DNA of 56,617 nucleotides, counting the filler, from Basidioascus undulatus (lineage: Eukaryota), in NCBI GenBank assembly GCA_000826855.1. It is 3 parts of 3 records of this genome, joined end to end, with 100 filler letters (N's around TTAATTAATTAA, not from the genome) between each part and the next. Parts side by side here need not be neighbours in the genome. Positions count along the whole stretch, not along the records: positions 1 to 18,824 come from JTLS01000447.1; 2 more parts are not named here. One strand, 5' to 3'. Position 1 is the first letter of the stretch. Every line of letters begins with the position of its first letter. The position numbers and the translations under genes are program-made. The notes beneath the pieces are model-generated. The model made no database searches, was not told the origin of the DNA, and was given only the letters and a program-made list of their open reading frames with translations. Shown here piece after piece: positions 1 to 46,343 of the stretch.

Positions 1-296
1 ATCGGAAGGGTGGAGTAGCGGGGGTGGGGGGGACTTGCGTCGGCGGCGGAGATTGGTGCGGAGGACGGCTGGGAGGAAGGAAGAACCTGCGTCGTGGCCG
101 CGTCGGGGTGAGAACGCTAGCCGCGCGCAAGCATGTGGAGGAGCCTCACGCTATACGAGCTGAGCCTTCTGACACAATCCAGTGACCCTAGGGCTGTCCG
201 AAAATCACGGATTGAAAGAACGCAGTCCGGCGCGGCGATGCCCCGCCCGATGGAGGAGGACGAAACTGCACCGAGCCAGCGGCGCACGCGAGACAT
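1..296 (-). CDS. possible 5' part of a gene running off the contig edge (hypothetical)
   Basis: ATG at 296 (MSRVRRWLGAVSSSS, Arg/Ser-rich, presequence-like), a candidate GTGAGG donor near 148 and a CGCAG acceptor near 87; no recognisable domain. Confidence 0.2.
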
Positions 297-3200
297 CGCG
301 CGGCGGAAGCGGGGTTCGATCGAGCGAGAATTGAGAGTGCGAGGGGTTTGAACATGATCAGTTTTTGAATGAAGCAATAGAGGGTAAGTGAGGGGAGAGG
401 ATGCCAGAATGGGATCCACGATGATGGTGGCGTGAAGTTGAAGAGGCAAAAGGCCGTCGCAGGCAGGTCGCTCTTGTTTGCTCGGCGTAGTATAGGCAAA
501 TTTTCATAGCGTGTGCGTAAAACTCGTTTAATGATAAAATGCTCAAAATATATCGAAAGCTTTTCTCATTCATGTATATGGCGCACGCGTACGAGGGCGC
601 GTTTCGAATCCCCCACGGGCATTCGCACGTTCGGCGATTCGCATTTTCGGGACTGACTGCCTTCGCCTTTTTCGGTCATCATCATGAGGAATTTTTTGAC
701 CGTAAACCAGATCTTATATCCCAACGCGGACCTCTCGAGAGCGTCTGAGTTCGCGAGACCGGCTCGCACATCACGATCGTCACCTTCTCACAGACGGTGT
801 CAAATTCCGAAACTCATTTCCGAGCGAGGTTGAGTGAGTAACGCACTTTGGGGCTTAGGATAACCTTATAAATAATTACAATCCAATGGTTCTGGTCCTC
901 AGGGCCGAAAAGGGGAAGTTGGAGTGTTCAGCAGTAGTGGAAGTCCCGCAGACCAGTGCAGACGGACGCCGTTACCTACATCCAGCTCCTTACCACAATG
1001 GCTGTACGACTGGCATCTCACTATGTACCCAAAACTTCTACAGCCTGATATTCAAGCCCTTCAAGTAGGGTAATACGGGGGCTGCGCACTAGAAGGCGGC
1101 ACTGGATATTCGGAGAGCTTGAAGACCGGTACAGTCCGGGACGTCCGCGTTGCTTTCACGAACGATATCGAGCTCGTCCAGAGCATATACAGCGACCTGT
1201 CAAAGAGATTGCGTCAGGACAAAACCACCGGCGACCCTTGGGCGACCCGACCTCCTGTTCTGCGACTTCTGGCGGCGGCCTTGGTGCCGCAGTTTTGCCC
1301 TGTTCTTCCCGGGTGCATATTGCGCAGTCCACATGGCGTCGACGGACACGAGTGTTCCCGGTGTGCCCCGACGACCTCTGCATCTGATTCGACTTCAGCG
1401 CCAGGAGATTGCAGGAGAGCTCGGCTGGAGTCCGGCTCGGCTAGATGGTTTGTGGGGCTCAGTATGCTGTCCGTGGGGGCCCGATAGTCAACCCTTACAC
1501 TGGTGGTCGGTGCCGGGCAGCCGAGTTCAGGTCCCGCAAACTGCTTCTCACCCCTTCTTATACAGGGGTATAGACCTCTGTAGTCTGAATGGCATATATT
1601 CATGATTAAGCCGCTGATGTTCGGAGACCCGAAAGATGGAAGCGCACAAGCGGAGGTGCGAGGAGCAAAGTAGAGGGAAACGGCCTGTGCACCATTAGTG
1701 AGTTTTAGACCGTACATCCAGGGTCGAGCTCAGCATCGAAGCCCAAATCAATCTACGAACATACAACCTGGTCTCAACCACTTCTCCCGAATGAAACGCA
1801 TCAGATCATCGCTCACTGTTCTTTCGTCTGGGGCGTGAACTTGATATCTTCCGTCCCTCCAGCCAGCAGCCTGCCGTTGTCTCCTCTCTGCTATCATCTT
1901 ACGAGTCGCAGGATACCCACGCTCACTACCCATCACTTTCCCTCTCACGTACTCCGCACTTTCCTTCTCCTGCGGCTCGCAGCGTGCTCAGCGGGGCCGG
2001 AGCCGTCATGGTTGCAACACCTTACATGGACGCGGTCGAATACTCTTCGGCGGGTCAAAGGGCTGGGCTGGCCGTAGGTTGTCTGATATTAGGAAGGTAA
2101 AAGTGCGGGGTTGACGACAGTGAGGCTGTCCTGCAGATAATCGGTGCGGCAGGAACTCTCTCCGCGGTCTCTACCTTTAGCCTCCTACTCTACATACTTG
2201 TCAGTCAACTCTTTTCTCTGTTCTTTTTTAAACTTGATATCATTTGAAATAACTGACTGGGAATGTGCAGTGGCAAGGTGTCCTAGCACCACCGTCAAGA
2301 CGAACGGACGTCACGGAGGGCATTCGCAGCTTTCTTCGCTCAAGCCTGGGAGGGTACTTGGCGTCTTTGATCCTTTGCGATTTTGTGCAAGGCGTCGCTT
2401 TTTCCTTCAACTTCAAGTGAGTCAATGCGTCCTTTCGAGACATGCTCTCGCTGACATCGAAGTTCTCCCGGTCGCAGATGGTCTGCGCTGGGACAGATCA
2501 AAGCAAGTCCTGTCTGTAACGCACAGGGTTTGAACTTCACATCTTCTCACATAAATTGAATTGAGCTCACGAGAAAAGGTTCACTCTCTAGGTGGAATGT
2601 CCCAACTCGGGGACCTCGGCAGCGTCGTCTGGAGTCTCTGCATTACCTGCCACACCTTCTGTACGTACACCGCCCCGAACGCATGAGCTAGGATTGGCTG
2701 ATCAAAAGATACGTTATAGCGGTACTCTTCTACACTCGTCGACCCCCGGGATGGGTAGCCCCTGTCGTACTGTTCTGCGGCTGGGTCATCATCATCGTAC
2801 TTCCCATCATCGGACCCACGGTCCTTCAACAGCCTCATCAGTCTTTCTATTCTGTCAGCGGCACCTGGTGCTGGTGAGTTTCGATGGTCAATGACCGGCA
2901 ATTTCGTACTGAACCCATCCACAGGATCAGCACTCCCTACGAGATTCCTCGCCTGTTCTACTTCTACGTGCGTTGTGCCGCACTCGACTGACGGACCGAG
3001 CGTCGACCTGAGGTTGTTCCCATTTCAGATCTGGGCTCTCTTGGATCTCCCGCTCTCAGTCCTTCTTTACGGCCTGATTTGTAAGTGGCAACGGGTCACC
3101 ATCTGGGCTCGAGTCTGACGGCATCTCTCGTCGGCAGATCTCCGCTTCTCTGGATACCTCGTTGTGGAAGGGACGAAGGTCAGCATCGGAAATGGTCGCG

Positions 3201-4837
3201 CTTCTTTGGCCTGCCTCATGCCATGGTCGAGCACGGTCAACCACTCCAGTCACGGCGGCGGTTCGGGCTCTGGCCCGTCGAGTGGACACCGCGGTACAAA
3301 CAACAGCGACGACGCGCCGGTGGGAAAGCATGTCAGGATGGTTGCGAGGAAGCTCATGCTGTAAGTACGCTTTGAAAGGGCGAAAACAGGTATTCACAGC
3401 ATGGTTCCCCATAGATATCCTTTTGCCTTCTTCTTCAACCTCCTCCCAGTGAGCATTGCAAAGCTCGGCCTCATGAGCCGCTGGACTCCGCCGTTCTGGT
3501 GTGTCGACTAGCTCTGCTGCTGAGACGTCCGCTGATACGCCCCGCCCTAACAGGTTCTTCGTTTATGCCGGCGCATCGTTCTCCCTCACCGGGTATGTTT
3601 TGACGCGGACGGGAGGCCCAGAGTTCAAAGCTCATTGCGCTAGGACGGCAGAACTGTCAATGTCGTGCTCTTCCTTTTGACCCGACACAGCTTCATCCGC
3701 AAGGTCCATCGTAACACAAGGCGCATTCACGTTACTACGCAGTGCGTTCCATTCCGTGCATCGTTTCCCTTTCTCGGTAGCTCAATCTTTCCCTCCTCTC
3801 CTGATCAGTCAGTACGTCCATAGCAATCTGATCCCTTGCGTTTCCTGAGGACCGTATATAACTAAAAACTCATGTCCCAGGATTACAATGATCGAAAGCG
3901 ACCGCGAGTTCACGTCCGGCGTGACCGCCACCATGACCCCGAAAGTCCGCATCGACGGGACCACCACTATCGAGCTGCAAGACTTCACTCCCGCTCAGTC
4001 CAACGAGAGGTTGGACCAATATGGGGGGCTCTGTCAGGAAGACCAAAAGATGCATGAGCACGATGGCGACGGCGATTCTATGGCGAGTCGCCAGGCTTTA
4101 GTTCGCTTAGAAACCGGAGGACACTCTTGACCAGGTTCGCATGCACAAAACCATTGCTCTAACCACCATTCTTCTGTCCGACTGTTCGAGAGAAAGTCTC
4201 ACGGAAGACCCTCATTTCCCACTGTCAATCTGTAGTCGTACTGCTGTTGTGCTGCACGAAGCATGGGACATGTCGATAGGCTAAGTCCTTCTGCGCCTAA
4301 TGATGAACGAGCGGCTATTTCACAAGACCTTCGGAGGCCCAGCCTAGTCAAGCCTCAAGTAATATCGAGCGCAGATGGTCAGGCTGGACAGCCACACGCC
4401 TGAAGGTCAATTCCACTTCAAAGGACAGCTGCCGTTATGGCCTCGCTGTACCGCTCTCGAGAATACATAGCTAGTCCTCAAGCTACGTCATATAAGTACA
4501 TAATTTTTCATGCTCTGAAGTGTTTCTGCGCTACTGAGCCGACGACGCTCAAGGCTGAGTTATATGTCGGCATTCTTGGTTCGCACATCCCTTCCCGCTG
4601 GGTAGTGGCCTCTCAGGCCTCTCTTATTGAGTGCCTGGAAGTGTCAGATTCACATGAAGGTGCTTTTTAATGAACAATAACCCTTTTCCGCGTTATCCAT
4701 ATACCTTGGATATTGGGCGGAGACCTGGCTGCTGCTTGCAATGTGGAGCTTGACGCATCTTGACGTGTCTAACGCCAACGGACACGCTATTGGACACGCC
4801 TCTCGGACACCAACCATCATCTTCATCTACCCCCACC

Positions 4838-6320
4838 ATGACCTTGAATGCGTTCGACTTCATTCCAGACGATCCGTGAAATCTTCGAATGGACTCTTTC
4901 CAGCAGCGAGCTGTTCGTCCTTTTCACGCACCGCATCCGTCTCGCACACCTCAAACGGCGGCTGCGGAGCATCGCGCTCTCGCTCATCTACCACGACCTT
5001 CGCTGCCAACTGCCTTTTCGGTCTTCACTGAGCCCGGCGTTTGTGCATGAGGGGCGTATTTCATTCACGCAGAGGGCTACACGTACGTTGGTGGGAAGCA
5101 TGGATTCCCTATCTAAGTAATCCCTATCGAAAATCTACCCGCTCGCGTCGGCAAGGCCTGTGTTTCAACTTGGTCGATCGCATCCGCGCGGGAAGCACAT
5201 CCACCTTTCGTGCAATCACATCATGTCCATTCATGACCATGTCGTACCTTGTCCGAACTTGTTCTCGCTCTCCTTCGTCTCTTACCCGCGACAGGACTTC
5301 ACCTCGCCTGCGCTACGCTTTTCAAACTCGCCGCGGCTCACAGTCCCAGTGGTGTTAACGCTCGTAGTGGATGATCGGCGCCAACTCAGCACGCGGATCT
5401 TCCGCACCCTTCTCTTCGCCGCTTACTCGCCCCTCTCTTCAATCTGGAAGGAAGCGCCTAGCTGGCCTAACCTGGAGACATGCGATATAAACTCCGGCTC
5501 GCCGTATCACACGCGTCCAGCGCGATCTTCTCGTTGATGCGTTGTCTCACCCATCGCCTCTAGCGCCCCTCTTTCCGGCGCTCACAACCGTCCGCTTTCG
5601 TAGAGGATTTCGCTTTGAGGACGACCGTCTCCTCGTCTTCGCGCTGCATGTACGGCACGTTGTCATCAACGGCTCGATGTTCGAGAACGGCTGCATCACT
5701 GCTATCATCGCGCTCTCGCGCCTTCCTCACCTCGAAACCTTCGATATTCAGCCTTCTCGCCTCACATCGGGGCTGATACAGTGCCGCTTCGTCCATGTGC
5801 CGCGTCTCATTGACCTGGGACCTGTGGATGGTGCTTCACTCTTTCCATCAGGCACATGCTTTCCCACAAGATCTGACTCGAGGTGAGCAGGACTCTTATC
5901 GACACGCCTTCAGCTCGGCGCAGAACCTGCGCATCCTCCGTCTTCAAGCCACCGTCGTCGAACATCTCTCCTCTCCGCTCCCTTCGGAAGTTGCGCTCAA
6001 TGAACTTGAGATACCCTGCGCGCATCTCTGCTATGCCGTCGGTCAACGCACCCGTAGATGTTCTACTCGAAGTGTACTCGGAGCACGGCGGGAGGGTTCC
6101 CCTCGAGCGGCCGCAGTTGGAGGTGAGCCTGGAGGCGGGTGAAGGGGCCGTGAATGACCCCTGTTGTTGGTGGAAAGGTGTCAAGAGGAGGGTCCACGGC
6201 GGCGCTCAGCAAGAATGGCGAACGGGTATCGGCGGAACACCAGTTCGCGTTCAGGCACGCGGCACTGTTGTAATATGTAACGGTTTGAAGGTTATTTATC
6301 GGATAAAAGAAAAGTCCTGA
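4838..6320 (+). pseudogene. F-box/LRR (RNI-like) protein, frameshifted
   Basis: MTLNAFDFIPDD switches frame into IREIFEW (F-box LPxEIxxEIF-like). Downstream LRR-like segments lie in different frames: WPNLETCDI, FPALTTVRF, LPHLETFDI, AQNLRILRL, ALNELEI. Confidence 0.55.
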
Positions 6321-7046
6321 TGTCCCCAATGTCGTTACATCCACGGCACGTCAGCTCCCTACCTTTGAGAAAGCATCTTGCTACGCCTCGCAACCATGGC
6401 CCAGTCTGCGCGTACGCAAGTTGCTGTTCTCACAATAGGCTCCGCACTCAAGGGTCGCATAATAATATAATACTGTCCCGATCCTCTTAGTTTCACTCAT
6501 AACCTCATCTCAGCGGTGATCCACTGGAGAATGATCGACAGTCCGGAAGGAGCCGCGAAGCAGACGCTGAGTACTTTCTCCCAGGCAGACTTCAGGAACA
6601 GGATTGGGCAGAGGTGGTTGAGCAATAGCCTGTCATAGCGTTAGCTAACTTTGGGAAGAATCAAATAAAGTAGCTCAATTTCATCTTGTCCACGCACCTG
6701 CCAAGCTTCTGCGCCGTGTCCTGATTGTCGATGTAATGAAGAGTTGAAATGCAAAGTGCTCGATATCTTATTATGAACTCCAACAGAAGGCCAATCCAGG
6801 AACAACCGTGTGCGCTTGCGTGTCATCGGACGCGGAAGAGGACGGTCCGCTTCGGTTCACAAGGCATGCAGCCAATTATTGCGTATGGCTGCGTGTCATC
6901 GGATACCAAAGAGAACGTTCCGCTTGGTACATTGGGACTGCGTAGCTTTGAGTTCAAGGAGACGCCGGTTTGTTACCGCACTCTCATGGTCCCTCTCTTC
7001 CATCCTTCACGCACTGTCGCGCTGCATTAACTTCACGCCCCTCATC

Positions 7047-7938
7047 ATGAACGCCGACCCTGACACGCTCGCTTGGATCTCATGGCGCAACGCTCGCCCG
7101 AAAGAGCACGGGTGCACATTGATCACGCACGAAAAGAAGTACTATGAGCTTGACACATGGGGCGTCAAGACTTGCGTCAAACGTTCGCTTCGCCCAGCGG
7201 AATGGGGGACCAACCTGGTGAGCTTAGCGGTGTTTCAGTCACGCCAGTTCTACCGCATTCAACCCGCTTCACCAAAAACACTGAGTCATTGTTCCCGACA
7301 TCTGCCTCCAACGTCTCCGCAACGAGGCTGCCGCCATTGAGTTCGTCCGCGCCAAAACCGACATCCCAGTGCCTATGGTCCGGTGCGCGTTCGAAGACGA
7401 CGGGGCCTTCTACCTGATAACCGGTCAGTGATTACACGATGCTCCATCCATATCACCATCCAAACTCTGCTCAACCAGTAATCCCTCTCATAGACTTCGT
7501 CGAGGGAGTCTCGCTGGGCAAGCTACCGGATGAGCAGAAGCCGGCGGTCTTCAAGCAGCTCGAGGCGCACCTCTCTACGCTGCACAAGCTCACGTCGACC
7601 AAGCTGGGTGGCCTTGCAGGCGACTGCTGCTTCCCGGTGAAGCTCTCTCCCAATCTCTCGCGCCCCTTCCCCGCAAAGTACCGTGACGCCGACGTCGCCT
7701 GTGGGGAGGACCCATATGTGTTCTGCCACAATGACCTCGCGCAGCACAACGTCTCATCGTCGACCCCGACACGCTCGAGATCAGGGAAGTTCTGGACTGG
7801 AAGTACGCAGGGTTCTATCCGAAGGAGATGGAAGGACTGTTCTACCTCCGCCATGGAATGTCCGCTGCGCTCCCAGACGAGCATGACGACGTCCCCACGC
7901 TGCTAGACATGCTCCGCCGTCTCGAGCTGAAGGCCTAG
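7047..7938 (+). pseudogene. aminoglycoside-phosphotransferase (APH)/kinase-like protein with a frameshift
   Basis: Motifs VKR, RLRNEAAAIEFVRAKTDIPVP, YLIT-(intron)-DFVEG, FCHNDLAQHN, then a frame switch to IVDPDTLEIREVLDWKYAGFYP; stop TAG at 7936-7938. Confidence 0.75.
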
Positions 7939-8943
7939 AGGTGCGCTATAATTGATTTGTCCATCCACGTTATATAGATTGCGTTCGTACCTCTCTGACT
8001 CATCACCTGAGCTAAACATCATTTTAAAAGCTCCGCAATGCTCTTCGCAGAGTCTGGAAATGTTGTTGAACTCTCACCTCATACTTGTTCAAGGTGTTTC
8101 ATATTCGTGGGTTTGACGGACTCTTCTCATCTATCAATACTATTTATTAGCCTGGCAAACGTGTGCTGCACTTCCGTCGCCGGTCACTCTCGGCATCCTC
8201 TCAGAACTTCATGCGCTCTGAAGGCTCGAAAAAGGACTGTGGGTCAGTAATGGATGCAATGCTCACGGAATTACGCGTGGAGACTTACGTTTTGCCAGCG
8301 ACGAGTGGCAGGCCTCAAAGTGAGCAGGGAGCCCTCGAGCCGATGGATGACACAAGATGACAGGTACGCTTCTAGGACTTATAGGTAATTAAACTCGCAG
8401 TGTTCTTGTATTTTAAGAAGACCAGGCCTCGTGCAGTATTACGATTCTAAGGTGAACAGTTACGTGCTTGACAGTTCCCAAGGCACTGTCAGGTTGCACA
8501 CGTTGTTACATGTCGGCCTCGTTCATTTTGCAGTTTCTCCCTCTCTTCCGTTGCAGGGCGAACTTGTGCCATGGTACCAATTCACCTTTGTACCAATGGT
8601 TCCGGGAATCTGCAACTCTTCTGAAGGGCGAGCCAGACAGCCGCCGGTGGTAACACAGACTTTATTGGCGCAGACAAGCATAGCTGATACCTCTCTACAA
8701 CCGCAGTGTTCGCATGCTCGACTAGTTATAAGCAAGAAGACGACCTATGGCTCTTTGGGTTGGAAGGCGTCTCGGGGAGTGGCTCGCTGAGCGAGTCAAC
8801 GCAGCACAATAAGGCTCGGTAGGAGCTTGAGAGAGGAGGAATCTGTGGGCGATATAGGCTTCACCTGAAAGGGTATACAATGGTAAAACAGTGATTGAAC
8901 CGTTGGGACTTGCTTGGCTAGCGCGTAGCCGCCATAGCTCGAG

Positions 8944-8961
8944 GGTGTGTGTGTGTGTGTG
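8944..8961. repeat. (GT)n microsatellite
   Basis: Run of GT dinucleotides seen directly. Confidence 0.85.
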
Positions 8962-9403
8962 AGAGCTCAAGGGTGGTACGCGGTTTTCCGCATCTGGGAA
9001 GATGCGATTGCTGAGATCTCGTCAACCTCAAGGGAATATTCGACAGTGATACTGATATATTATTTGAGCCTATCATGAAGGTCTTTCGAAGCCATGCGGG
9101 GAAATATTCGACAGCGAGGATCCTGAGGCGTCGAGGCAGAACGCATGGTAGCGCTGCAGCCGCAGAGGGGACTCCAAGTCACTGATTAAGTACCATAACA
9201 ACATTCATACTCAAAGCCGGCAGATCAGGTTTCCTTAATGCGCGGCCCGACGAGCACAAGAATGTGTGGTGCGCTGGGCCTCGGGTCGTGCCGCCTCATG
9301 TCCTCGCCTCTCATTGCGCGCATCAGGCGCATCAGGCGCAATGCATCTGCGTAAAATGCAAGTCAGAATATTACTCAAATCCTCGCATCACCGCTCCTAG
9401 TAG

Positions 9404-10344
9404 TTACTGCATCCCCAAGCCAAGCCCGTAGCTACCGGGCAGTACAGCCACCGGCTCCTGCTTATCGCTAACCGACAGCTTCGCGGCCTGCGCCACAAGA
9501 CTATCCCCGAACGTCGCCACTCCGCTCGTGCGGGGGCTGGTATATCCCGGCGCGGGGCTAAACGCCTGGCCAGGGGCGTCCGCGAACCTGGGGCTGGTAC
9601 TCCCCGCCACGGGCGTCTTGTCCGGGTCCACTGCTGCGCCTCCGTTGCCCTCGACCTGCGCACGCCAGTCGCCGCGCTGGGCGGCCCACTTGCCCACGAC
9701 GAACGCCTGCTCGCGCACGCGCTCGACGTGCTCCGTTAGGCGCTGCACGTCCGCGAGCGTCGGCCATCGGGACGGGTTCGCGGCGTGCCCGGCCTGCGCG
9801 GCGGAGAGGACCGTCCGCGCTGTGGAGGAGGGCAGGCCGCGCAGGTACAGGTGCATCGCTTCGCGCTCTGAGAGCGGGACGCAGCGCGCGAGCGCGTGCG
9901 AGAAGAGGTGGTTCACGTGCGAGGAGTAGTCGGCGGCGGAGGTGAAGTCGGACTGTGAGGAGGGGCGTGAGCGGGGGGTGGTTGGGCGGGTGATGCGTAC
10001 AGAGTATGGGGCGAAAGACAAGGCTGGGGGAGGGAAAGGGGAAGGGAGTTAGGGAAAAGAAGACGCACCCTTCGCAAACTGAGCATCATCTCCCGCATCG
10101 CAAACTCCTCTTCCGGTCCCGCAGGAGCCGCAGGCGGACTGCCCGTATTGGGCGTCGGCCTCCCGCCGCGACTTAGACTGGGCGTACTCGCTGGTCCCCC
10201 AGCGCTCGGGCCCGAGCGGTATGCGGGCGGCGGGGTTGCCATTGGAGGGGTTGAGGGACGGCGGTGGTGCTTGGGCGTCGCGGAGGAGGATGGGAAAGAC
10301 GATGTCGAGGCCGAGGCCACTGAGGGCGGTGGGGCGTTCGGCAT
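9404..10344 (-). CDS. 274-aa protein with Pro/Ser-rich N-terminus and a retrotransposon Gag capsid-like domain
   Basis: Exon 1 is 10344-10069, the GTGCGT...CACAG intron is 10068-9953, exon 2 is 9952-9404; they splice in frame with no stops. Core: LSLRRSDFTSAADYSSHVNHLF...LSEREAMHLYLRGLPSSTARTV...WPTLADVQRLTEHVE. Confidence 0.7.
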
Positions 10345-12289
10345 GGCGGATCAAGAGCGAAGGTGGGTCCAAGAGAAAAGAAAGACGACCAGGGAGTTGA
10401 AAGGACTGTTGAGAGTGAGAGTGAAAGGCAGAAAGGCAAGTTGCAAGCCGAGGGAGCCAACATTCCATCCCGAGCTCGGCGCCGCGGTCTCCCAGAATAT
10501 ATCCTCAATCACATGCGCATGAATCAGCGTTAGTGACCATCAAGAAAGTAAGACAAGGCTGCATATAGGAGGGGGAGCTGGGGCTGTGCGAAATGATTGT
10601 TAACAGTCCCGCGCACACGTCTATATGCTGAGGAGCGGCCCCGGCTGCTTTTCTGAATCGCGCCATGGCGTCCCTTGCAACTTAGACCGGCAATTTGGGC
10701 ACGCTTGTTGGAATAAGTTAAGGCAGACACATGTTTCGCTGTTTGATCAACGATGGTAGGGAGAAAAGAAAACGTGGAATAAGAGCAAAAAGTGGATAAC
10801 GACAGACTGACATATGTCAGCCGGCTGCGATTGACATCGTAGACACCGGCGCGCGGCGACAGTCCCGAGCCCGGAAGGCAATATCAGGTGCATGGCGCAT
10901 GCTCTTCTCTTCATTCTTCAGTCATAACATGTGCAAAACTGGGCTGAAGATGCTGAACGAACATCTGGAGCTGGGAAACGACGGGGAGGACATACAGTTG
11001 TTCTCTGACGACAGGGACCAGCACACCGGTTGACGGGAGAGGGGCCATGGCCGTGTGCGGCACGCACCATGCCTGCTGCAAGGCCCAAGGGCAATCCGAA
11101 AAACTGTAAACGCACCCGGAACCGGGTACTCAGGGGGAATCGCAGCTGGATGGGCGTGACTTATAATTATGCCCGTTAACTTTCTTGAGTTACTGCCAGA
11201 CACTGATCATACGTCTTCAGAACTTTGCTTGCCGAGAAGTGAGGCTCCATCTTTCCTTTCCCTCCACTGATGCAGGTTGATTTATTGACCCAGAAATTCC
11301 TCAGCGTAACGATCTCCGAATCTGGTGTAAGATTTTTATATTCAACTCGGGTTTCTTGAAGAGTTGGAAAATGACTAATATACATCTGTGCTTCAGAACC
11401 TTTGCCTTAACTTGACTACCCTGCCCGGCCTACCGAAGAAAGCGCGTCGCAAGGCACCTTATGTCGAGGCAAGCGTTATATCCCTTCCCAATGTTTAGGA
11501 TTTTACTAACCTGGAGTTGTCTGTATAGGCCTGGAACGCAGACGGAACTGGATATGCCAGCGCTTGCTCGGAATATGTGCGTGGACCTGCTGGTTTTGTT
11601 TCTCTTTCTAAACACGTGGGAGCAAAGGGGTCGATGGAAAAAGATCTAAGGTTTCTTTCAACCATTGTTTTTACTCCTTTCATTGAGTCGTTGCACAACA
11701 AATGGTGCATGAACGACACCCTCGCAGACCGCGAGAAGACCTGCTCCTGGAACTGCGCCGCCACGGACGTCCACACCTTCTGTTCTGGGTAAGCTAACTC
11801 TCCTACTGCTTAAATGAAGAAGATACATTTCCTTATTTCAGTGTACTCCTCCAGCGACTGCTAAGACCACGAAGCGGCTGAATCCTCCTCCACTGCTGCT
11901 ACTTCCCCCGCCCCGACTAGAGACTCCCATGGAGACGACAGCGGACCCGTCACCCATGTGGCCAACATCCCATTTGCGACGCTTGCGGTTACGCTGTTCT
12001 TGGCCTTCGGTTCGGCGACGCTCGGCCTCTAGTTTCTCTTTATCCTTCTCGGAGGTGGTCACAGGGCTTTGATAGAGTGGGGTTTGGGGTACCTGATCTT
12101 TTGGCGATTGATGAAGCGTCCTGAATTCCATAGTATGGAATGCCTCTTTGACATCTTGCTTGCGGAGCTGGTTTTCGCGTTCTGTGTCGACTTTCACCGA
12201 CGCGCCGACAAGTGTCATGGCACGAAACTTTAAAACAAGGCTAATAGGGTTCAAGAAGTCAATATTTGCAATGTCCATGTCGGTTCAGC

Positions 12290-15200
12290 TCAAACGACCT
12301 GCGAGTCTAATACTTCGCGATACACAGCTCTGAAAGCCCAGGCATGCCCCCTTCCCGCCTTTGCCCATTCGTCCAACTTGACTGACAATTCAAGACCACC
12401 GCTACTGCTTACCTCCCACTCGATTGCGCCGGGCTCAGCACCCAAAAGCTCGACCTGATCCCCCGGAAGAACGGGTACCTGGCGATTAAGCTCGACGCGG
12501 ACTCGGCCGCGCAGCTGTTGAATGTGATGCTTGGGCGGTTCGAGGAGGATGAAGCAGAAAGAGGTCGGCGTGCGCGTGAACCGCCACGGACCGTGCTCGG
12601 CGCCGAGGTAGAAGAAGGTCTTGTCAAAAATCCTGAGTGTCAACGCACGTTGGGGGTTTGAGTTAAGTGAGAGTACGCGGTTTACCGTGTTGTATATGCA
12701 GTTCCCGGCGTTCTCGAGCCATTTGCCCACCTCCAACAGCCGCTCCGTCATCAGAGGGATTATAGTTCCATCCGCAGTCGGCCCAACATTCAAAAGACTG
12801 CAGCGTTGCCGATTCAGAAACTGAATACCGCGATGCAAGCAAAACGAAAAAACCCACTAGTTGCCGTTCTTGGAGACGATGTCGACAAGGGAGTGGACGA
12901 TCTGTGTGGAGTTGCGGTATGCATAGTCAGGCGTCTCCTCTGCGGAGCAGGGAGCTTTTCGTCAGCAGGCGGAGCAGTCAGATCGGAAGGAAGTAGACCC
13001 GCTGTTGTAGCCGTAGCTTGGAGTAGTATCGATGCCCTACAAGGAGAAAGGTGGTCAGCTTCGGCAGAAGACAAAGTAGTCAGAATAGTGCCAAGAATCC
13101 GCAAACCTCGTTGGTTTCCCAACGCCGTTCCTGTGAGCTACTTTCAGGGTCCTGCGTACACAGATGGAAGCGCGAGCGTGACAGCGCACCTGAATCGACG
13201 CGAACGAGGCGTACTCAGGGGTGTCGAAGTCGGGTAGGGCGCCACATCCTAACAGCGATTTATTCATGGACAGCCAACAGCTGTCCATGAACGGTTGAGA
13301 ACGCACGGTTGTTCAGGGTAACCTGTCTCCCCTCCTTGTCCGCTTGAGCGAACCACTTCCTCGCAAACGTGCGGGTATCGTTAGCGCCGCCAATGTCACA
13401 CCACTACGCGGGAAAAATACGGGTCGGTTAAGGCAGCAGAGGGAGGAAACTGCGGCGCGCACCATGATCTCGGTGCCGAGGTCGGCGAGAATCTCCATCT
13501 GTCGGCGCTGGAGGTCGTGCACGTAAGAGCCGACAGGGATGTAGCCCGTGTACGGCTCGAGTTCGGACGAGTTGTAGGCGTTTCGGGGCAGCATGCCGGG
13601 GAAACGCTCCCATGCATGAGGCTCGTACCTGCAGCGGAATGTGTTAGAGCATGCCAGAGCAACTACTGGCAGCAGCGTCTTACGAAGGATTGAACCTGCC
13701 GAAACCGTCTGTTCAGATCCAGAGCTTAAAATACTCCGGGAGAGCTCTGCGCACCATTCCGGCATAGAAAAGTAGACTCCACGGTGCAGCCCGCCCCGGT
13801 CTTTTGCGGCCTCGAAGAGCTCGTTCACGAAGTCGCGCTGCGGTCCGAGCTTAACGGAGTTGCGGTTGGACGACTCGTGGGTGTCGAAGATTGCGAATCC
13901 GTCGTGATGTTTCTGCACGACAAAAGGATGCGTTCAGTGCAATGCTGAGCAGGGAGAAGCATTCGACGCACAGAGGTCAAGATGAAGTACTTCGCGCCCG
14001 CGCCGAGTATGAGGTCGACCCAAGCGCTGAAACGCGAAGTCGTGAGTGGCCGCGTTTAAGCAACGAAGCTCGGAGGAGACTGACCTGGCATTAAAGTTCA
14101 ACGCAGTAAACTGCGGGATGAAGTCGTTGTAGACAAACTTCGGTCCATATGTCGTGAGATGGTGTGCCTTGTGTGCCGGGTTCGTGTGCTGGTTCCACCT
14201 GCAATCGCGCAGGTGAGCTGTAAAGCATATGAGAGTCTAGAAGATGGTGAGAAAAATGCACCAGTACCACTCTGTGGTTGCCGATAGCGCCATCAGTCTA
14301 TTGCTCAACAGTAGGAGCAAGAAAACGCACCGCCGTAGACGCCAGGTATGGTCCAGGCGGGGACAGCGTACAGCTGTGGAGACCCGCATGAGCGAACTTG
14401 TTTCAGGCTCTTTCGCTTCACGCTTACACCCCAGGGGAAGCTGGTTGTGGGACGATGTCAGTGGTACGGAACGCAGTGTACATTCCCCAGAAGCGAAAGG
14501 CGCACAAGATTCCGAATTTGGCGCCATTCCACTGACGAGACAATGTGGATGAGACCCAGTTCAAGATCCAAGAAGTAGAAGGCGGAGACGCACCCATTCC
14601 GGTGTCTCGTGCTTATCCAGCTCCTTGTCTTTCTCCCAAGTCGGCAAGCCCAGCTCAACGACGAACGGGCTTTCCATCCCTCCGTGCCGATCCACGTTGA
14701 CATAAACCTTCTGAGACCCCATTTCCAACGGCTCCACCAGCACCCTCGCTCGCACTTCGTCCCCTGGCATAACCCGCCAAATTACGCCCTTCTCGAGCGT
14801 CTTCACGCCCTTCCCTACCACGCCCACCTCCCGCTTCCCGACCGCCCAGCGGTCGCGCGAAAGATTCGCCAACGTGACCTCGAGGACCTGCGCACGCTTG
14901 TCACCATATGGTGTCCAGTTGGAGGTAGCGCGGACGGAGCGGACGTGGAGAGGGGTGGTGTCGTGGTTGTGTGGCAGGGAGGGGACGAGTGTGAGCGCGA
15001 AGAGGTGAAGGCGGTTGAAGTTCGGGTTGGGCGGAAGGGTGATGGCCGTTAGTCGAGCGTGGGAGGGGAGGGATATCGAAGAGGGATATATTTGAGAGAT
15101 GTTGTAGTTTCGTTTCGAAGGGCCGGTAAAGTGGTACGGCCTGGCGGTTGGAAAGTGAGCGTGGGACCGAAATGGCAAGATCGGGAATGTGGGCGGACGT

Positions 15201-15966
15201 CTTGATAGCGCCGACATTAAGCCTGGGAAATAAAATAATGTTAAGGTCCCTTGCCTGCAACGTGGGAATATGAAGTAGGCTCACCAGTGTAAAGTCCACC
15301 AGTTCCGCACGAGCACTTCTCGCTGAACAGTGCTACCGTCGTTGAAATGCAACTTTAACACCGCTCCGGTCTCCCCTGTCACGCCCGGTCATTCCTTGTA
15401 AGAATCCACCGAAATATAAGGTTCCGTTCCGGTTATACCATCGAAGAAGTCTCCAGCAGTGAGCATGTGCATCGCGTGCGCATGCACAGGTGGGTCGATG
15501 CGGATCCTTTGTCCATCGGTTACGACGTGATCTGCCTCGGGGTTGTCCCAGTCTGGAAGAGAGAACTAAACGCTGGTGTTAATCAATGATAGACGGTAGC
15601 ATATCTGAGAGAAGACGCACATTCACTCCGCCATGCTCGATCCAACCCCGCGGCAGCTCGTCCGCTGGAAAGCTTCGACGAGCATAATCAAAGTCGACCT
15701 CGCCGTTCTTGCTGGCTGCTTTACTGAAAAGTTTAAAGTGTTTCGGGGCTTCAAAGGCCCGAGACGTTACACTAGACGTGTCCTTCTACTCACTGGTTGT
15801 ACCACCTCTCAAGCGGGATTGGAATCGACTCGAACGCCGTCCCTCGCCCGGGCAGCGGAAGCGGATGCTGCGGTCCTTTGTGGCGGCGAGGCTGCTTCTC
15901 CGTCGGGACCTGAGATTGTAGAGAAAGCGCCGGTAAAAGCGCGATTATAAGTTGTGGGATTCGCAT
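12290..15966 (-). CDS. secreted alpha-L-fucosidase, glycoside hydrolase family 29 (multi-exon)
   Basis: Signal peptide [16 protein letters not shown]. Spliced motifs [52 protein letters not shown] (nucleophile Asp), [13 protein letters not shown] and [10 protein letters not shown]. The exons I traced join in frame via GT-AG introns. Confidence 0.93.
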
Positions 15967-16286
15967 GTTCAGCGCGTGGGAGGAGCACGATCAAGGGGAA
16001 GGGGCAAGATTAGCGAAGGGGCCTTATCCGCTTGTTATCGGGCCGAGGTTACCGAGCCACACAATCAGGGGATGATCCGTGATGGGTACACAAGTGGAAG
16101 ACTGTGCAGATACTTCAGGAGCTGTGAGAAATTGAGAGTAGAACCAGTCTATCCAAAACCATAATGGCTGTGACAGCAGACGAGGTTGAGCCAAGATGCA
16201 GACTTGGGCGATGTCCGTCTCATCGAGAGGTCTGAATGCGAGATTCCCCATGGCATTTAGATGTCTATTCCCCCGCGAACCCTTCT

Positions 16287-16953
16287 TCAGTACTCCCCCA
16301 AGTCCTGCTCATCCCCGTTCTCCTCCAATGCCCTCACCGCCCAGAACGCGCCCTGGTACTCCTGCCCCTTTCCGAAGCCCTTCTTCCAAAGGAGGTGCCC
16401 ATACTCCGCCTTCAACCGAAAGAACCCCTCAAACAGCGTCCGCCCATCCTCTCCCTTCCCAGACCTTCCGCAATTTCAACATCCTGCTTCCCTCGATCTC
16501 GAAGCACGTCTCGTCCTCCACCTCCAGGCGTCCCTCCCACCCCTCACACACGCATCTCCCTCCCCACGGACAGAGACACTCGCGGAAGGCGAGCCGCGAA
16601 TGCTCACGGGCAGAGGCTCCGATTCCATGGGCTCGCCAATTGTGTCGATGAGGAGCGCGCCCGAGGAGAGAGACGAGGATGGGAGGTGGAAACGGCCGGA
16701 GTTGTCCCGCTTAGCCTGGAACTGGAGGATCTTGGCGTGCACAGCGGCGTGGTCGACGGTAGAGCTCGGCGACGGAAGGTACTCTTTGATGAGGAAGGAA
16801 AGATCGCCCGAGTACATGTCGAAGCTCCCGGACCTATGGGGAAGTAGCGGGCGTGCTCAGCGTCGGGATGGCATGCAGGCAAAATAATTCGAGGACCGAT
16901 GCTTGTCAGTTGCTTTCCGGCAAGCTGAGCGGAAAGGAAGTGGATCCGGACAT
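16287..16953 (-). pseudogene. hypothetical protein with an apparent +1 frameshift near 16452
   Basis: Coding-like exons SGSFDMYSGDLSFLIKEYL... and CFEIEGSRMLKLRKVWEG, which continue only after a frame shift as EDGRTLFEGFFRLKAEYGHLLWKKGFGKGQEYQGAFWAVRALE; 5' splice structure unresolved. Confidence 0.5.
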
Positions 16954-18824
16954 GGTGACGGTAGATCCTGTTCTGGTCATCAACGGAAAAGCAAGGTAAA
17001 GATACTGCGCTGGCAGTTAGCCCGGGAAGGACTGATCAAGCTTACATCGAATATATAGACACGAAGACGCGTTGCGACGCGTGTGCAAGGTGTGAACGGG
17101 TCTTACGTCCTCATCGCTTTCATACTAGTTACGGCGGAAGATCACGGCGAATTTTCAACAACAAAATCGTGTAGTTTCAGATTGGGAACCCAGGGATCGG
17201 CTGGAACCAGGTCAAGCAGGTACCAAGTGCTGCGAACGGCAGGCAGCCAACTTCGACATGCTAACGTCATCAGCGCTTTCTCCTGAACTACCCTTTCGCA
17301 AGCAAGAGTTGCTCCTGATAAGGCACTGAATCACGCTGATCCAGTGAGCAGCTTGGGTCCCTTTGTCTTGCGCCCCGTGACGGCGATATCTGAGCATGCA
17401 TCCAGAGCGCCTCTCGACACTACGGCAACAGCTTCAAAATCTTTCACTTGCGGGCTCGGCCAAATGCACCATGTTTTCTGGAACACATTCCTACGTAGGG
17501 GCTTTGCGGTTCGGAAGCCTATTCCTGCTGCACGCCGAGAGCTCGAGCCTGAGCCTGAGCAACAAGGCTCATAGTTCCCTTCTTGCTCCGCCCAGCGAGA
17601 CCAACAATATCGGGCTAGAAACTCCGGAGAAAACGGTTGGCTAATTTAGGACCTTACAGGGTACGAAGGTTCTTGTCCCTGGGAAGTAGGAACAGGATGC
17701 GGAATGGCCCTATCAAGGGTGCCCAGGGTTCTGCGATAAATTGTATGCCCTGCCGTCCCATTCCTAACGCCCTCCCCATAGCCCATCTCCATCTCTAGCA
17801 CCCGAAGCCCACCGGCCCGACCCCTTCTAACCCCTCCCCCGACCGCGCATAATAAGCAATCCTCAAATCTCCTCGTGTCCAGTCGCCACTGTCAAGCCAA
17901 GCGACCGCCTTGTCAGAACAGCTGACATCCCCTCGCCCCTCAATCCTTACGCTATATAGGGAGAACAGGACCTCTTGTCCGGTGCTGCCTTGTGTCTCCG
18001 GTTTCTCCGCGGTCTAAGTCTGGATGGGTGCGGGGAGGTGTCAGGGAGGTGTCAGTTAAAGCAGTTAAAGGTCTTGGTGGCGGCGGCGACCCCATGATGT
18101 CCTCCGCGTCGCATTTCCACAGAAGGGGCGACGACTCTTTGACGTCCACCCCTTTGCCGGAAGTGGTACATCAGCTTTCGAGGTCGGCGATGGAGACGCT
18201 AACCCCGTGGATTATGCGCGCTTGGAGGCACCTGGAGACCTGAAGAGGAAAGAGTGGACTTGGGGTGTAAGAGAGATTGCAGGGGATGATAGGGCAGCGT
18301 GCCGCGTGGCGAAGTGCGAGAATGATGTGGATGTCGCTGGAGGGGGTGTGGACGGACTGACTGAGGACCAACTGACGTTGCCTGGATAAATGGTGCCTTT
18401 GGGAAATTCTGGGGAGAAGGGAGGAGAGGAAGACGAGACGAGTGAGGCGTGCACCGCAGCCGGAAGCGGTTGTCTCGGACTGAAAGCTGAAGCACGAAAA
18501 ACGCGCCAACTCGTCTTCTGGCTCTCTCGACGCCGCACTACATATGTTCATAGAAGAGTACGAGTTCCAGCGGAGGGACTGGTTGACTTGGGCCACGAGC
18601 TACTGCGTGCAGCCGGACAGCGGGCTGCACTGCAGCTCATAAACCGAGGCATGAGATATGAACAAGCTGCTCGATGACGCGTTCATGATGCTCATTCCCT
18701 TGCGCTTCAAAGAAGTACCTAAACTGGAGTTGGACAGTGGGGAAGGCCAGACAGAAAAATGGGGGAAATCCAATTTGAAGAAAGACGGTGGGATCGCCGT
18801 CGCACTTGTTCAAGCCGCCCGGTG

Positions 18825-18924
18825 NNNNNNNNNNNNNNNNNNNNNNNNNNNNNNNNNNNNNNNNNNNNTTAATTAATTAANNNNNNNNNNNNNNNNNNNN
18901 NNNNNNNNNNNNNNNNNNNNNNNN
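18825..18924. other. artificial assembly spacer N44-TTAATTAATTAA-N44
   Basis: 100-bp linker with a six-frame stop cassette, identical to the one at 37742-37841. Confidence 0.97.
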
Positions 18925-30843: not shown

Positions 30844-31988
30844 CTACTGCGCCCACCCTACCCTGCCCATCCTGATGCCCTCCTCGCCGTCCTCCGCACT
30901 CGGACTGCGCGTCATCCGCCCCGCCCCTGGCGGCAGCGCGCCGCCAGGTATGGCGATCCTGAGGTTTGGCCTGGGACTGTGACTGTGACTGTGCGAGGAC
31001 AGCGAGTGGCTGTGTGCGAACAGCGAGGGCGGGGAGGCGGCGCTGAGGCGCGGGCTGGTCGGCGGACTGAAGAGCGGCGCGGCAAAGTCGTCGACGGCCA
31101 TGAGGCTGTTGCGGGGCGCGGCGGGGTGGCGGTCCCGGATGAAGGAGGGCGACGAGTCGCGTCGGCGGTGAGGGGAGCCCTGGGAGGCGACGGTTTCGTA
31201 CGACCCGAAGGCGGCGGCTGGGGCGGGGAGCGGCTCGGGGGGAGGGGTGGGCGTGCGCAGGAGCGTGTGCGCTTCGGCGGGGCGGGAGACGTTGTGCTTC
31301 GTTTTGTCGAAGAACTCGGGCGGATCTGTGAGGGAGGGAAGCGAGATCAGGATTTGATTAGTTAGGGGATGGGAAGGGAGGAGGACAAACAGAACGAGTC
31401 GCGATGGCAAGAGCCTTCCTGCCGCTTCATGAAGAAGCGGGCCACCGCGATGACAATGACGATGACCGCGATCGCGATGACGATGGTCACGACAACCGCC
31501 GCCGGGAAGTACTTGTTCGAGGGCTGGAACGCGCCTGCGACGCCCGCCTTGGTTGGGGTGGCAGAGGCGGAGGAGCTCGTGGAGGAGGCGGAGTCGGTAG
31601 ACGTGTTGGTTGATGTGGAGGAGTCGGAGGACGAGGAGGACGAGTCGGTGGAAGAGGAAGAGTCGGATGAGGAGGACGAGGATGATGAAGAGTCGGATGA
31701 AGAAGATGAGGAGTCAGAGGAGGATGAAGCGGAGGCGCTCGATGAGCTGTCGCTTTCGCTACTGCTGCTGCCGCTGCTGCTATTGTCGTCCCCGGAAGAC
31801 GAGGATGCATCGCCGGAGGAAGAGCTGTCCCTGTCCTGCCGACGCACGATGCGCACCAAGCCCGTCGGACCTGGCAAAGACGGCGCGGGAGTGACGAGAG
31901 CGTGAGGGGTGCCTGGGGCGGCAGGTGAATCGGCGAAGGAAGACGCCGAACAGGCGAGAAGTGCGAGTGCCAGAAGTGAGGCTCTCAT
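30844..31988 (-). CDS. type I membrane protein with signal peptide, Ser/Thr/Asp-rich ectodomain and single TM helix (Mid2/Wsc-like architecture)
   Basis: MRASLLALALLACSASSFA signal; RR site followed by poly-Ser; TM AAVVVTIVIAIAVIVIVIAVA. Intron 31390-31326 (GTTTGT...CACAG) joins to a Pro/Ser-rich tail, giving 359 aa. Confidence 0.75.
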
Positions 31989-32917: not shown

Positions 32918-34456
32918 ATGTCTTTCCGCTCGCCCCTCCTCAACGCCGCGTTCCCCATCGCCTCCGTCAGCGAAAAGGCCGACGCCGCCATCCAGCGCAC
33001 CGAGGAGAAGGTCAAGGAGGCCCTCCCCCAGAACGTCGCCCCCACCGGCGCCGGCCTCTACGCCCGCTTCGCCCTTGCTGGTGCCATCTGCTGTGCCGTC
33101 ACGTATGTCTGCAAACAATGTGCTTGAAGCGACCCGAGGTGTACACTGGATGCTGACCCGAAGCACCTTTTTTCATCGTCTTCGATCAACAGCCACGGTG
33201 CCCTCACCCCCGTCGATGTCGTACGTCTTCTTCCTTTTCCTTACAAGGTTTTTGTGGCGGGATGGCATTTTTGGTCGCTCATCACGACCTGTGGCGGCGC
33301 ATGAATAGGTCAAGACCCGCATCCAGCTCGAGCCTGAGGTCTACAACAAGGTGTGTGCCGATCTTCCCTCTTCAGCGTCAACACAAACTAACCTTGCATT
33401 CGCTTCGTAGGGCATGATCGGCTCCTTCAAGCAGGTCGTCCAGACCGAGGGTGCTGGCGCTCTCTTGACCGGCTTCGGGTAAGGCACCCAGCAGGCAGCC
33501 CCAACCAACGCACGGCTCACTCCTGCCCGCACCGCACCGCAGCCCCACCTTCGCGGGCTACTTCCTCCAGGGCGCGTTCAAGTTCGGTGGTTACGAGTTC
33601 TGGAAGAAGCAGGCGATCGACTACTTCGGGATCGAGAAGGCGCGCGAGAACCGCACCGCGATCTATCTCGGCTCGTCTGCCATCGCCGAGTTCTTTGCCG
33701 ACATTGCTTTGTGCCCGCTCGAGGCGACCCGCATCCGTCTCGTCTCCCAGCCCACGTTCGCCACCGGCCTCGTCTCCGGCTTCACCAAGATCCTCTCCCA
33801 GGAGGGTGCTGGCGCTCTCTACGCTGGGTAGGTCTCTTGCCTACCTTCTCTTTATAAGGACAAGTTGGCTGAGACTTGGGGATTACCAGCTTCGGTCCCA
33901 TCCTCTTCAAGCAGGTTCCCTACACCATGGCCAAGTTCGGTGTGTACGAGAAGGTCTTCGAGTCCGCCATCAAGGGCTACGGCAAGCCCAAGGAGCAGAT
34001 CGCCCCCGGCACCCTCTCGGCCCTCAACCTGGGCTCTGGTCTCATCGCTGGTTTCGCTGCCGGTTCGTTACTCCCCTGGCCTTGATAGTTAGGTCCTCTT
34101 GATGCTGATGCTGATGCCTCCGCGCTCGCCCCACTAGCCATCATCTCCCAGCCCGCCGACACCCTTCTCTCCAAGATTAACAAGACCAAGGCCGCCCCGG
34201 GCGAGGGTGTCACCTCCCGCCTGGTCAAGATGGCCGGCCAGCTCGGTGTCCGTGGCCTCTTCGGCGGCATGAGTGCGTCCTCTCGCTCCCCTAAGCTCCC
34301 CCGACCCTCCCCTGCCGCCCACTAACGCTTCCGCCTTATTTTCTCTCAGCCACCCGTCTCGTCATGATCGGTACACTGACCGCCGGCCAGTTCGCGATTT
34401 ACGGCGAAATCAAGCGCGTTCTCGGCGCGACCGGCGGTGTCGAGATCGCCAAGTAA
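32918..34456 (+). CDS. MIR1: mitochondrial phosphate carrier (SLC25A3 family), multi-exon
   Basis: [92 protein letters not shown] and [12 protein letters not shown]; stop TAA at 34454-34456. Confidence 0.96.
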
Positions 34457-37741: not shown

Positions 37742-37841
37742 NNNNNNNNNNNNNNNNNNNNNNNNNNNNNNNNNNNNNNNNNNNNTTAATTAATTAANNN
37801 NNNNNNNNNNNNNNNNNNNNNNNNNNNNNNNNNNNNNNNNN
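37742..37841. other. artificial assembly spacer N44-TTAATTAATTAA-N44
   Basis: Identical to the spacer at 18825-18924. Confidence 0.97.
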
Positions 37842-45093: not shown

Positions 45094-46343
45094 ATGTCTA
45101 CCGCCCACAGGTAGGATCATGTGTTTCGGTGTTCAACCTGCACGCTCTGATCACTTCTCCGGCTCTCCAGGCCGACATGGGACCCCGCTGCGGGCAAGGC
45201 GGACACGAAAGGTGCCTCGCGCCAGTACTCCACGCGCGACATGGCGGCGCACACGAAGCTGAAGTTCCGGTGCGTGTTCTCCTTCAAATCCGTGCGTCTC
45301 TCGTGAGCTGAACCGCGTCGCACACCCACAGCAAGCCCGGCCAGACCTCGCATTCGGACGTGCAGAAGCGCGATCTGCGCGCTGAGCTCCTGCGCGCCGA
45401 AGCTGAGGCGGCGGACAAGAAGCGTAAGGCCGCGGGGCTCCCGCCGCTCGCGCTGCAGAACGGAGGCGGTGAGGAGGGCGAGTCGAAGCGGCGGAAGATG
45501 ATCGAGGCTGCGCGGGGGTTGGACGAGGACGAGGAGGCGCCCGCGCCGGCGGCGGAGGATAAGGGCAAGGGCAAGGCCCCGGCGCAGGATGATGATGAGG
45601 ACAGCGATGAGGACGAGGACGAGGAGGAGAGGTGAGTTTCCTGTGGGCTCGCCGCGGTGGTTGGGGTTGGGCTGATGGGAGTCTGCGGTGGCAGCGACGA
45701 GGACTCGGAGGACGAGACGGCGGAGCTCCTGCGTGAGCTGGAGAAGATCAAGCGGGAGCGTGCCGAGGAGAAGGAGCGCCAGGTGCGTCTTCCGTATTGT
45801 AGACTTCCGCCGCGTCGCTGAACTGTTCCGGGGGTTCACAGGAGCGCGAAGCGTCGGCCGCTGCCTCCGCGTCGCGCGAGGCGGAGGTGGCCCGGGGTAA
45901 CCCGCTGCTGAACCTCGCCAACGCGCTGGGCACGTCGACGCCGGGGGACACGGACAGCGACGCGGCGTCGAGCGTGGGGAGCTTTGCGGTGAAGCGGAGG
46001 TGGGACGACGGTACGTTCTGTTCGACCTCGGCTTGATATCCTGAGGACATGGCTGATATCCTGAGGACATTGCTGACCCCGTGCGGCACGCGGACAGACT
46101 TGATCTTCAAGAACCAGGCGACTGGGTCGGACAACAAGGGAAAGAAGGAGTTCGTGAACGATTTGCTGCGGACAGAGTGTGCGTGTCGCCCGTCACCTTC
46201 ACCCGTGTGATTCAGCGCGTCCTGACAGACTCCTGTTCTCTCATCAGTCCACCGCAAGTTCATGAGTACGCCACGTTGATGCAACGCGTTCGCCTCCCGC
46301 TCTTCACTGACCCGCTTGTCCACCAGGCCGCTTCATCAAGTAG
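45094..46343 (+). CDS. CWC15: pre-mRNA splicing factor Cwc15/Cwf15, multi-exon
   Basis: MSTAHRPTWDPA, AHTKLKFR, EDETAELLRELEKIKRERAEE, GNPLLN, VKRRWDDDLIFKNQA and FVNDLLRTEFHRKFMSRFIK*. Confidence 0.96.

Follow-up and report, generated by a model that had tools for sequence, protein, structure and literature searches.

A spliced, single-copy host gene of Basidioascus undulatus with a candidate Gag-capsid core and relatives in Wallemia

We analysed a stretch of DNA of 56 617 nucleotides (hereafter the window) from the fungus Basidioascus undulatus (GenBank assembly GCA_000826855.1), and followed up one gene on its minus strand, around positions 9170–10476, that an initial annotation had proposed as a domesticated retrotransposon Gag. 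The gene belongs to the host and not to a transposon, and this conclusion is well supported: it has relatives in another fungal genus, it is represented by a spliced contig, it is present in a single copy, and it is accompanied by neither pol nor long terminal repeats (LTRs). Gag ancestry of its helical core is plausible but unproven; we consider it quite probable, and the best fit is to the C-terminal half of a capsid of the Ty1/copia type. The full statement that this is a co-opted capsid-like host gene is, in our judgement, moderately probable.

Three sequence runs, X1, X2 and X3, were aligned on positions 8800–11000 of the window. X1 and X2 are genome-sized contig sets, and X3, made from the same sample as X2, consists of 36 764 records with 15.7 million letters, its kind being listed as a guess, 'DNA?'. 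One X3 contig of 1130 nt covers 10476–10069, 9952–9408 and 9346–9170, and thus skips two introns, both of the GT..AG type. X1 (two abutting contigs) and X2 (one contig) contain the unspliced locus only, and neither contains a further copy at ≥80% similarity. We read X3 as derived from cDNA, because DNA would imply a processed copy, and such a copy is absent from X2, which represents the same sample. Whether X3 is cDNA or a processed copy, both splice sites are used. The exon junction between 10069 and 9952, which had been predicted from the genomic sequence, is joined in the X3 contig at exactly these positions.

The minus-strand open reading frame (ORF) begins with an ATG at 10344–10342, preceded by an in-frame TGA at 10353–10351, and exons 1 and 2 joined give a frame of 274 amino acids without a single internal stop (Table 1). 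Intron 1 is canonical, carries CTCAC as a branch-like site, and lies between the first helix and the remaining core, where it parts ...LSLRR from SDF...; the motifs on which the initial annotation was based are present and are split by a spliceosomal intron, as it had said. Its two-exon model without lesions survives in part: the two exons, intron 1 and the open frame stand, but the transcript contig has three exons. The stop codon of the 274-residue frame (TAA, 9406–9404) lies inside intron 2, the donor of which extends over the end of the last sense codon and over the stop, so that the stop is removed in the spliced mRNA. The mRNA from which intron 2 has been spliced encodes 310 amino acids, and the form that retains it encodes 274; the contigs cannot tell which of these dominates.

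The G+C content at third codon positions (GC3) is 0.81 in the 274-residue frame, compared with an overall G+C content of 0.52–0.63 in the window. The coding stretch of exon 3 has a GC3 of 0.49 and has no counterpart in the Wallemia proteins described below. An antisense frame of 165 codons at 9432–9926 (+), with a GC3 of 0.86, was rejected as coding, the homology being on the minus-strand frame; GC3 alone cannot assign the strand here, because it is equally high in the antisense frame, and it is homology that decides. Two further ATGs, at 10468 and 10463 on the minus strand, lie within the spliced contig in other frames. That at 10468 (context GGGATGG) opens a frame of 264 codons on the spliced contig, which overlaps the main frame and has a GC3 of 0.62. 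This frame could have a regulatory role ahead of the main one, it could be open by chance in G+C-rich DNA, or the usual transcript could start downstream of it. The search of Rfam returned no match. Ten S/T-P sites and a single RRPS site occur in the arms of the predicted protein, some of them at conserved positions; we take the S/T-P sites to be proline-directed and the RRxS-type site to be a basic kinase-consensus site.

Relatives of the gene were sought with HMMER among 1 835 955 588 representative proteins, libraries that do not include the window protein itself and in which unannotated genomes are invisible. Three proteins were found at E ≤0.001, and one of them, P0004, a hypothetical protein of 308 amino acids from Wallemia mellicola, is aligned over the core (E 5.3e-9). 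The other two, P0003 (1710 amino acids) and P0005 (406 amino acids), are repeat proteins that match only a low-complexity tail or a stretch of 32 residues, and they were set aside. BLASTP of the window protein against P0004 gave 36 identities in 99 positions (E 3e-16). When the spliced product was aligned with P0004 by script, 87 of the 241 aligned residues (36%) were identical, and the alignment runs without a gap across the junction of exons 1 and 2. Divided by region, the identical residues are 44 of 111 in the core, 19 of 53 in the N-terminal arm and 24 of 77 in the C-terminal arm. Outside the core, the window and Wallemia proteins share H-[KR]-R-P-S in the N-terminal arm, D-x-D-K-T-P ... 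S-P-[KR]-F in the C-terminal arm, and an end consisting of an aromatic residue followed by GLGLG.

Further members are P0006 from Wallemia ichthyophaga, the core of which is identical to that of P0004 at 95 of 111 positions, and two fragments from the ENA. The frames are intact in the three full-length members of the family. One ENA fragment, P0008, departs from the family sequence after ...LSLSR, at the very position where intron 1 of the window gene starts, and reads on with a Val codon (GTN); it appears to be an ORF read into an intron at the same position. A word-indexed search with the exon-2 product gave nothing among 403 candidates, and a search with the profile A1 added only P0008. In metagenome scans with A1 and with P0004, 183 and 151 stretches, respectively, matched the pattern, and none of them was confirmed. 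Judged by sequence, the relatives known are confined to Wallemia and appear orthologue-like, with the same architecture. P0006 itself is longer (441 amino acids), and over roughly its first 140 residues it matches DUF2076 (E 1.6e-6) and shows a weak match to CHCHD10 chains in the PDB; it is probably the product of a gene model that merged two neighbouring genes, rather than a true fusion.

Searches of the neighbourhood recovered no parts of a transposon. Pfam models of reverse transcriptase, integrase, protease, RNase H and Gag matched none of the 271 stop-to-stop ORFs of at least 90 amino acids in the window (140 ORFs scanned at E ≤0.01 and 131 at E ≤0.001). There were no CCHC knuckles, no LTR-like families of direct repeats of ≥40 nt in positions 1–22000, and no second copy of the gene elsewhere in the window. 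The initial annotation had noted that no protease, reverse transcriptase, integrase, zinc knuckle or LTR was apparent nearby, and these searches bear it out; its reading of the locus as a host gene is likewise sustained by the Wallemia relatives, the spliced contig and the lack of an additional copy in X1 and X2.

What kind of domain the core represents is a harder question. Several searches ranked Gag or capsid families first. Among 24 736 Pfam models, PF14223 (Retrotran_gag_2, the gag polypeptide of LTR elements of the copia type) is the best family for two of the four members (E 0.088 and 0.079), and residues 68–149 of P0004 fall on positions 79–162 of the 172 positions in its profile. In the AlphaFold2 model of P0004, the core (residues 61–172) consists of five helices with a predicted local distance difference test score (pLDDT) of 75–92, and in both arms pLDDT is <50; in the model of exon 2 of the window gene, pLDDT is 69–83 over exon-2 residues 1–90. 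A Foldseek search of the P0004 model against 350 542 PDB chains placed at ranks 1–4 the capsid C-terminal domain (CA-CTD) of Ty1 p22 (7nlg), the Copia capsid of Drosophila (8vvw), Ty1 p22 again (7nli) and the CA-CTD of PEG10 (7lga), at E 0.62–1.4; the CTD of Ty1', Drt2, the CTD of Ty3 and SCAN follow at ranks 25, 26, 33 and 37. VIA-align showed residues 66–155 of the model to be colinear with Ty1 residues 261–351 at 16–20% identity, and residues 92/100–186 of the Copia capsid align with both models at 18–22% identity. MOAP1, PNMA2, the PEG10 CA-CTD and SCAN, which acts as a dimerisation module, are among the structural neighbours.

The top match in the viral library BFVD is a caulimovirid coat protein (E 0.072). 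In a language-model search of the ESM Atlas with residues 60–175 of P0004, the three best-ranked named clusters are one of Caulimovir_coat_dom (0.90) and two of Retrotrans_gag (0.90 and 0.89). The first differently annotated set, at rank 11, also carries Caulimovir_coat_dom; further sets of the Gag type (DUF1759 and Ty3_capsid) are in the list as well, and the first unrelated family is Flu_NS1 (0.85) at rank 18. The same search with the whole of P0004 was uninformative, all scores being ≤0.81. Prediction of a homodimer of the core gave scores of 0.26 and 0.28 against a mark of 0.32, which count neither way.

A number of observations weigh against a Gag origin. The score of P0004 against PF14223 is 12.7 bits, compared with a gathering cut-off of 27, the N-terminal half of PF14223 has no counterpart, and the exon-1 and exon-2 products of the window gene match no Pfam family even at E ≤10. 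Of the 281 Foldseek matches of the P0004 model in the PDB, none reaches E ≤0.001, and the root-mean-square deviation (rmsd) to the CTDs is 5.3–7.8 Å (7.3–7.8 Å for the P0004 model). The Foldseek list for the window model is not led by Gag, PNMA2 being at rank 10 with E 3.9. Sequence searches of the PDB with hidden Markov models built from A1, from the core alignment A3 and from P0004 found no Gag; their matches are limited to CHCHD10, owing to the N-terminal fusion in P0006, and a single bacterial regulator (E 0.55). The structure models were built on alignments of four sequences. Moreover, the signals in favour are not independent, because all of them read the same pattern that had drawn attention to the gene initially, and there is thus a selection effect. 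Expression, too, is deduced from a spliced contig in a run labelled, as a guess, 'DNA?', and none of the runs is listed as RNA. For the reading of the core as a Gag CA-CTD, several sub-threshold signals agree, but none is significant; and the comparison with capsid structures proposed for it placed CA-CTDs at ranks 1–4, but at E-values short of the threshold.

These observations leave room for a gene restricted to its lineage, the helical bundle of which has no Gag ancestry and resembles capsid by a chance match of amphipathic helices. We regard this as possible though doubtful. In its favour, every Gag signal is below threshold; a structural search independent of Foldseek puts unrelated helical bundles first, the PDB sequence searches contain no Gag, and weak Gag matches are partly to be expected since the ORF was picked for the same pattern. 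It has more difficulty with the agreement among Pfam, Foldseek on the PDB, BFVD and the ESM Atlas, each of which ranks a Gag or capsid family first, and with the fact that the matches cover the same 85–90 or so residues, are colinear, and always concern the C-terminal half of the capsid. The locus might also be a solo gag left behind by an ordinary retrotransposon and now decaying, or no functional gene. The low GC3 of the exon-3 extension, its lack of a Wallemia counterpart, and the long overlapping frame opened by an upstream ATG could be taken in this sense, but the window and two Wallemia species have intact frames of conserved architecture, the introns are canonical and skipped in the spliced contig, the gene occupies a single place in X1 and X2 at ≥80% similarity, and the window is free of pol, LTR and Gag matches in Pfam; we consider a relic very improbable.

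A Gag origin may also be accepted with another role. By analogy with p22/p18 and Drt2, the protein could be a restriction factor, a CTD-only decoy that would bind the capsid CTD of a resident retrotransposon and poison its assembly. Its architecture, a CTD with neither an N-terminal domain (NTD) nor a zinc knuckle, is suited to this, p22 and Drt2 are among its best structural neighbours, and DRT2 demonstrates that such a route exists in fungi (PMC10951436; PMC13709905). p22 and Drt2, however, resemble their targets, yet no Gag or Gag-Pol protein was found at E ≤0.001 among the 1.84 billion representatives, and the conservation of the non-Gag arms and of the C-terminal end between distant hosts would suit a cellular partner better. 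We think the restriction-factor role quite unlikely.

The initial annotation knew of no described fungal equivalent, but fungal precedents are already in print (PMC8321522; PMC10951436). Three fungal genes co-opted from gag, Crtg12–14, all single copy, were described by Wang and Han (2021; PMC8321522). Crtg12 and Crtg13 are derived from Ty1/Copia and occur in Dothideomycetes; Crtg14, derived from Bel-Pao, occurs in Tremellales/Trichosporonales and combines a fusion to PEX14 with an intron in its gag part (PMC8321522). The only gag case cited by a kingdom-wide screen for fusions between host genes and transposable elements is that of Wang and Han (PMC10799480). DRT2 of Saccharomyces cerevisiae is a restriction factor domesticated from the CA-CTD of Ty1' Gag (PMC10951436). 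The name Wallemia is absent from the main text of both PMC8321522 and PMC10799480, and among the titles listed for literature joining Wallemia, retrotransposon and gag, none indicates a work on such a gene. Identity of the window gene with Crtg14 was considered and rejected: there is no Pex14 family in the window products, and homologue searches recovered no relative in Tremellales.

The known systems closest in architecture are Ty1 p22/p18 and Drt2 (7nlg, 7nli and 9rxy), each a stand-alone protein with a five-helix CTD at its centre and without NTD, nucleocapsid or pol; in the case of Drt2 the gene is moreover a Gag-derived host gene of a fungus (PMC10951436). They are young, however, and plainly similar to the Gag of Ty1 or Ty1', whereas the window family has a Pfam match of 12.7 bits, is found in distant hosts whose proteins are 36% identical, and is set apart by a spliceosomal intron within the core and by long, conserved, disordered arms. 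Crtg12–14 are likewise single-copy fungal host genes that arose from LTR-retrotransposon gag, and Crtg14 is an intron-bearing gene of basidiomycetes (PMC8321522). In contrast to the window family, which lies below such thresholds, they were found by sequence similarity to Gag, and no Crtg lineage appeared in our homologue searches. The Copia capsid 8vvw and PF14223, the best Pfam family, correspond to the core in their C-terminal half, but far under threshold and with an rmsd of 5.3–7.5 Å. In animals, too, Gag capsid domains have been taken into host genes (Arc, PEG10/RTL, PNMA and SCAN); these are derived from Ty3/gypsy, and most have both capsid lobes, with SCAN fused to zinc-finger proteins, whereas the window family, from a fungal host, has its nearest signals in the Ty1/copia type and its domain set between disordered arms. 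SCAN corresponds to the co-opted gag gene Crtg7 (PMC8321522).

The favoured explanation is a co-opted capsid-like host gene. Its product consists of a disordered, Pro/Ser-rich N-terminal arm (about 75 residues), a core of five helices (about 110 residues) and a C-terminal arm, likewise disordered, which carries conserved short motifs and finishes with the conserved GLGLG tail. For the core, the most likely ancestor is the CA-CTD of a Gag from an LTR retrotransposon, the Ty1/copia type being the nearest. Its co-option would have preceded the split of the host lineage from Wallemia, and the spliceosomal intron would have been gained afterwards. In solved structures the CA-CTD provides the dimer contacts of particles, and it is through the CTD that p22/p18 and Drt2 bind Gag (PMC13709905; PMC10951436); by analogy, we infer that the CTD-like bundle is a module for association between proteins. 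With neither a CA-NTD nor a zinc knuckle, the protein would be unable to assemble or load particles by itself. Through their S/T-P and RRxS-type sites, which suggest control by kinases, the arms would probably tie the core to host regulation. A role as a cellular adaptor is favoured over one in an arms race, given the conservation of the non-Gag arms and the lack of any recognisably close Gag-Pol protein.

A more specific form of the co-option hypothesis would make the gene a very old co-option of a Ty1/copia CTD in the line of basidiomycetes to which Wallemia belongs, too diverged for the screens that found Crtg12–14, and remade as a phospho-regulated adaptor with its conserved C-terminal end switched by splicing. 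Retention of intron 2 would then expose the GLGLG end (274 amino acids), and its splicing would bury this end under 36 additional residues (310 amino acids). Taken as a whole, this version seems to us unlikely, if slightly less so than the restriction-factor role.

The features of the gene are given in Table 1.

Table 1. Features of the capsid-like gene in the window
Feature	Position	Strand	Remarks
5' untranslated part	10345–10476	−	covered by the spliced X3 contig (X3 record 4 begins at 10476)
Exon 1, coding part, 92 codons	10069–10344	−	Pro/Ser/Ala-rich arm, then first core helix
First core helix, residues 78–92	10113–10069	−	aligned with the Wallemia helix-1 segment, at the end of exon 1
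Intron 1, 116 nt, phase 0, GTGCGT...CTCAC...CAG	9953–10068	−	exactly absent from the X3 contig; present in X1 and X2
Exon 2	9408–9952	−	remaining helical core (about nt 9952–9659) and disordered C-terminal arm
Conserved C-arm motif D-x-D-K-T-P ... S-P-[KR]-F	9584–9628	−	from alignments with Wallemia
Conserved C-terminal end, aromatic-GLGLG-x-Q	9407–9430	−	end point of all Wallemia homologues too
Intron 2, 61 nt, GTAACT...CTGAC...CAG	9347–9407	−	absent from the X3 contig
Exon 3	9170–9346	−	36 added residues, stop ending at 9235; the rest 3' untranslated to the contig end

The sequence TTAATTAATTAA, a 12-mer with stops in all frames, is flanked by runs of 44 N at both 18825–18924 and 37742–37841, which suggests that the window was put together from three pieces, each of about 18.8 kb, with spacers between them. 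Because of this joining, the secure neighbourhood of the gene comprises positions 1–18824 only, and genes beyond 18824 may be unlinked to it. Upstream of the gene on the same strand, three ORFs at 12293–14236 (−) match positions 60–98, 113–173 and 312–344 of the Alpha_L_fucos profile and represent an alpha-L-fucosidase gene that is either split by introns or damaged. Elsewhere in the window, ordinary housekeeping genes were recognised by matches to Mito_carr at 33469–33828 (+), FAD_binding_4 at 40043–40501 (+), Cwf_Cwc_15 at 45312–45632 (+) and Cpn60_TCP1 at 52535–54205 (−), together with a weak Nop14-like match at 31366–31902 (+).

Co-opted capsid genes have been well studied in animals and are rare in fungi, where the literature considered here records three deep events and DRT2. 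The gene described here would be a further, more diverged member of this known kind, and not a new kind. If its Gag ancestry is false, it is an ordinary lineage-restricted gene that encodes a helical core with disordered arms. A stop codon placed inside a splice donor is a compact and testable route to two C-termini. If the Gag ancestry is true, the gene would add a basidiomycete case that is invisible to screens based on Pfam thresholds, which would suggest that old co-options are undercounted by them, and Wallemia, with its small genome, would be a tractable organism in which to study the role of a CTD-only remnant of a capsid.

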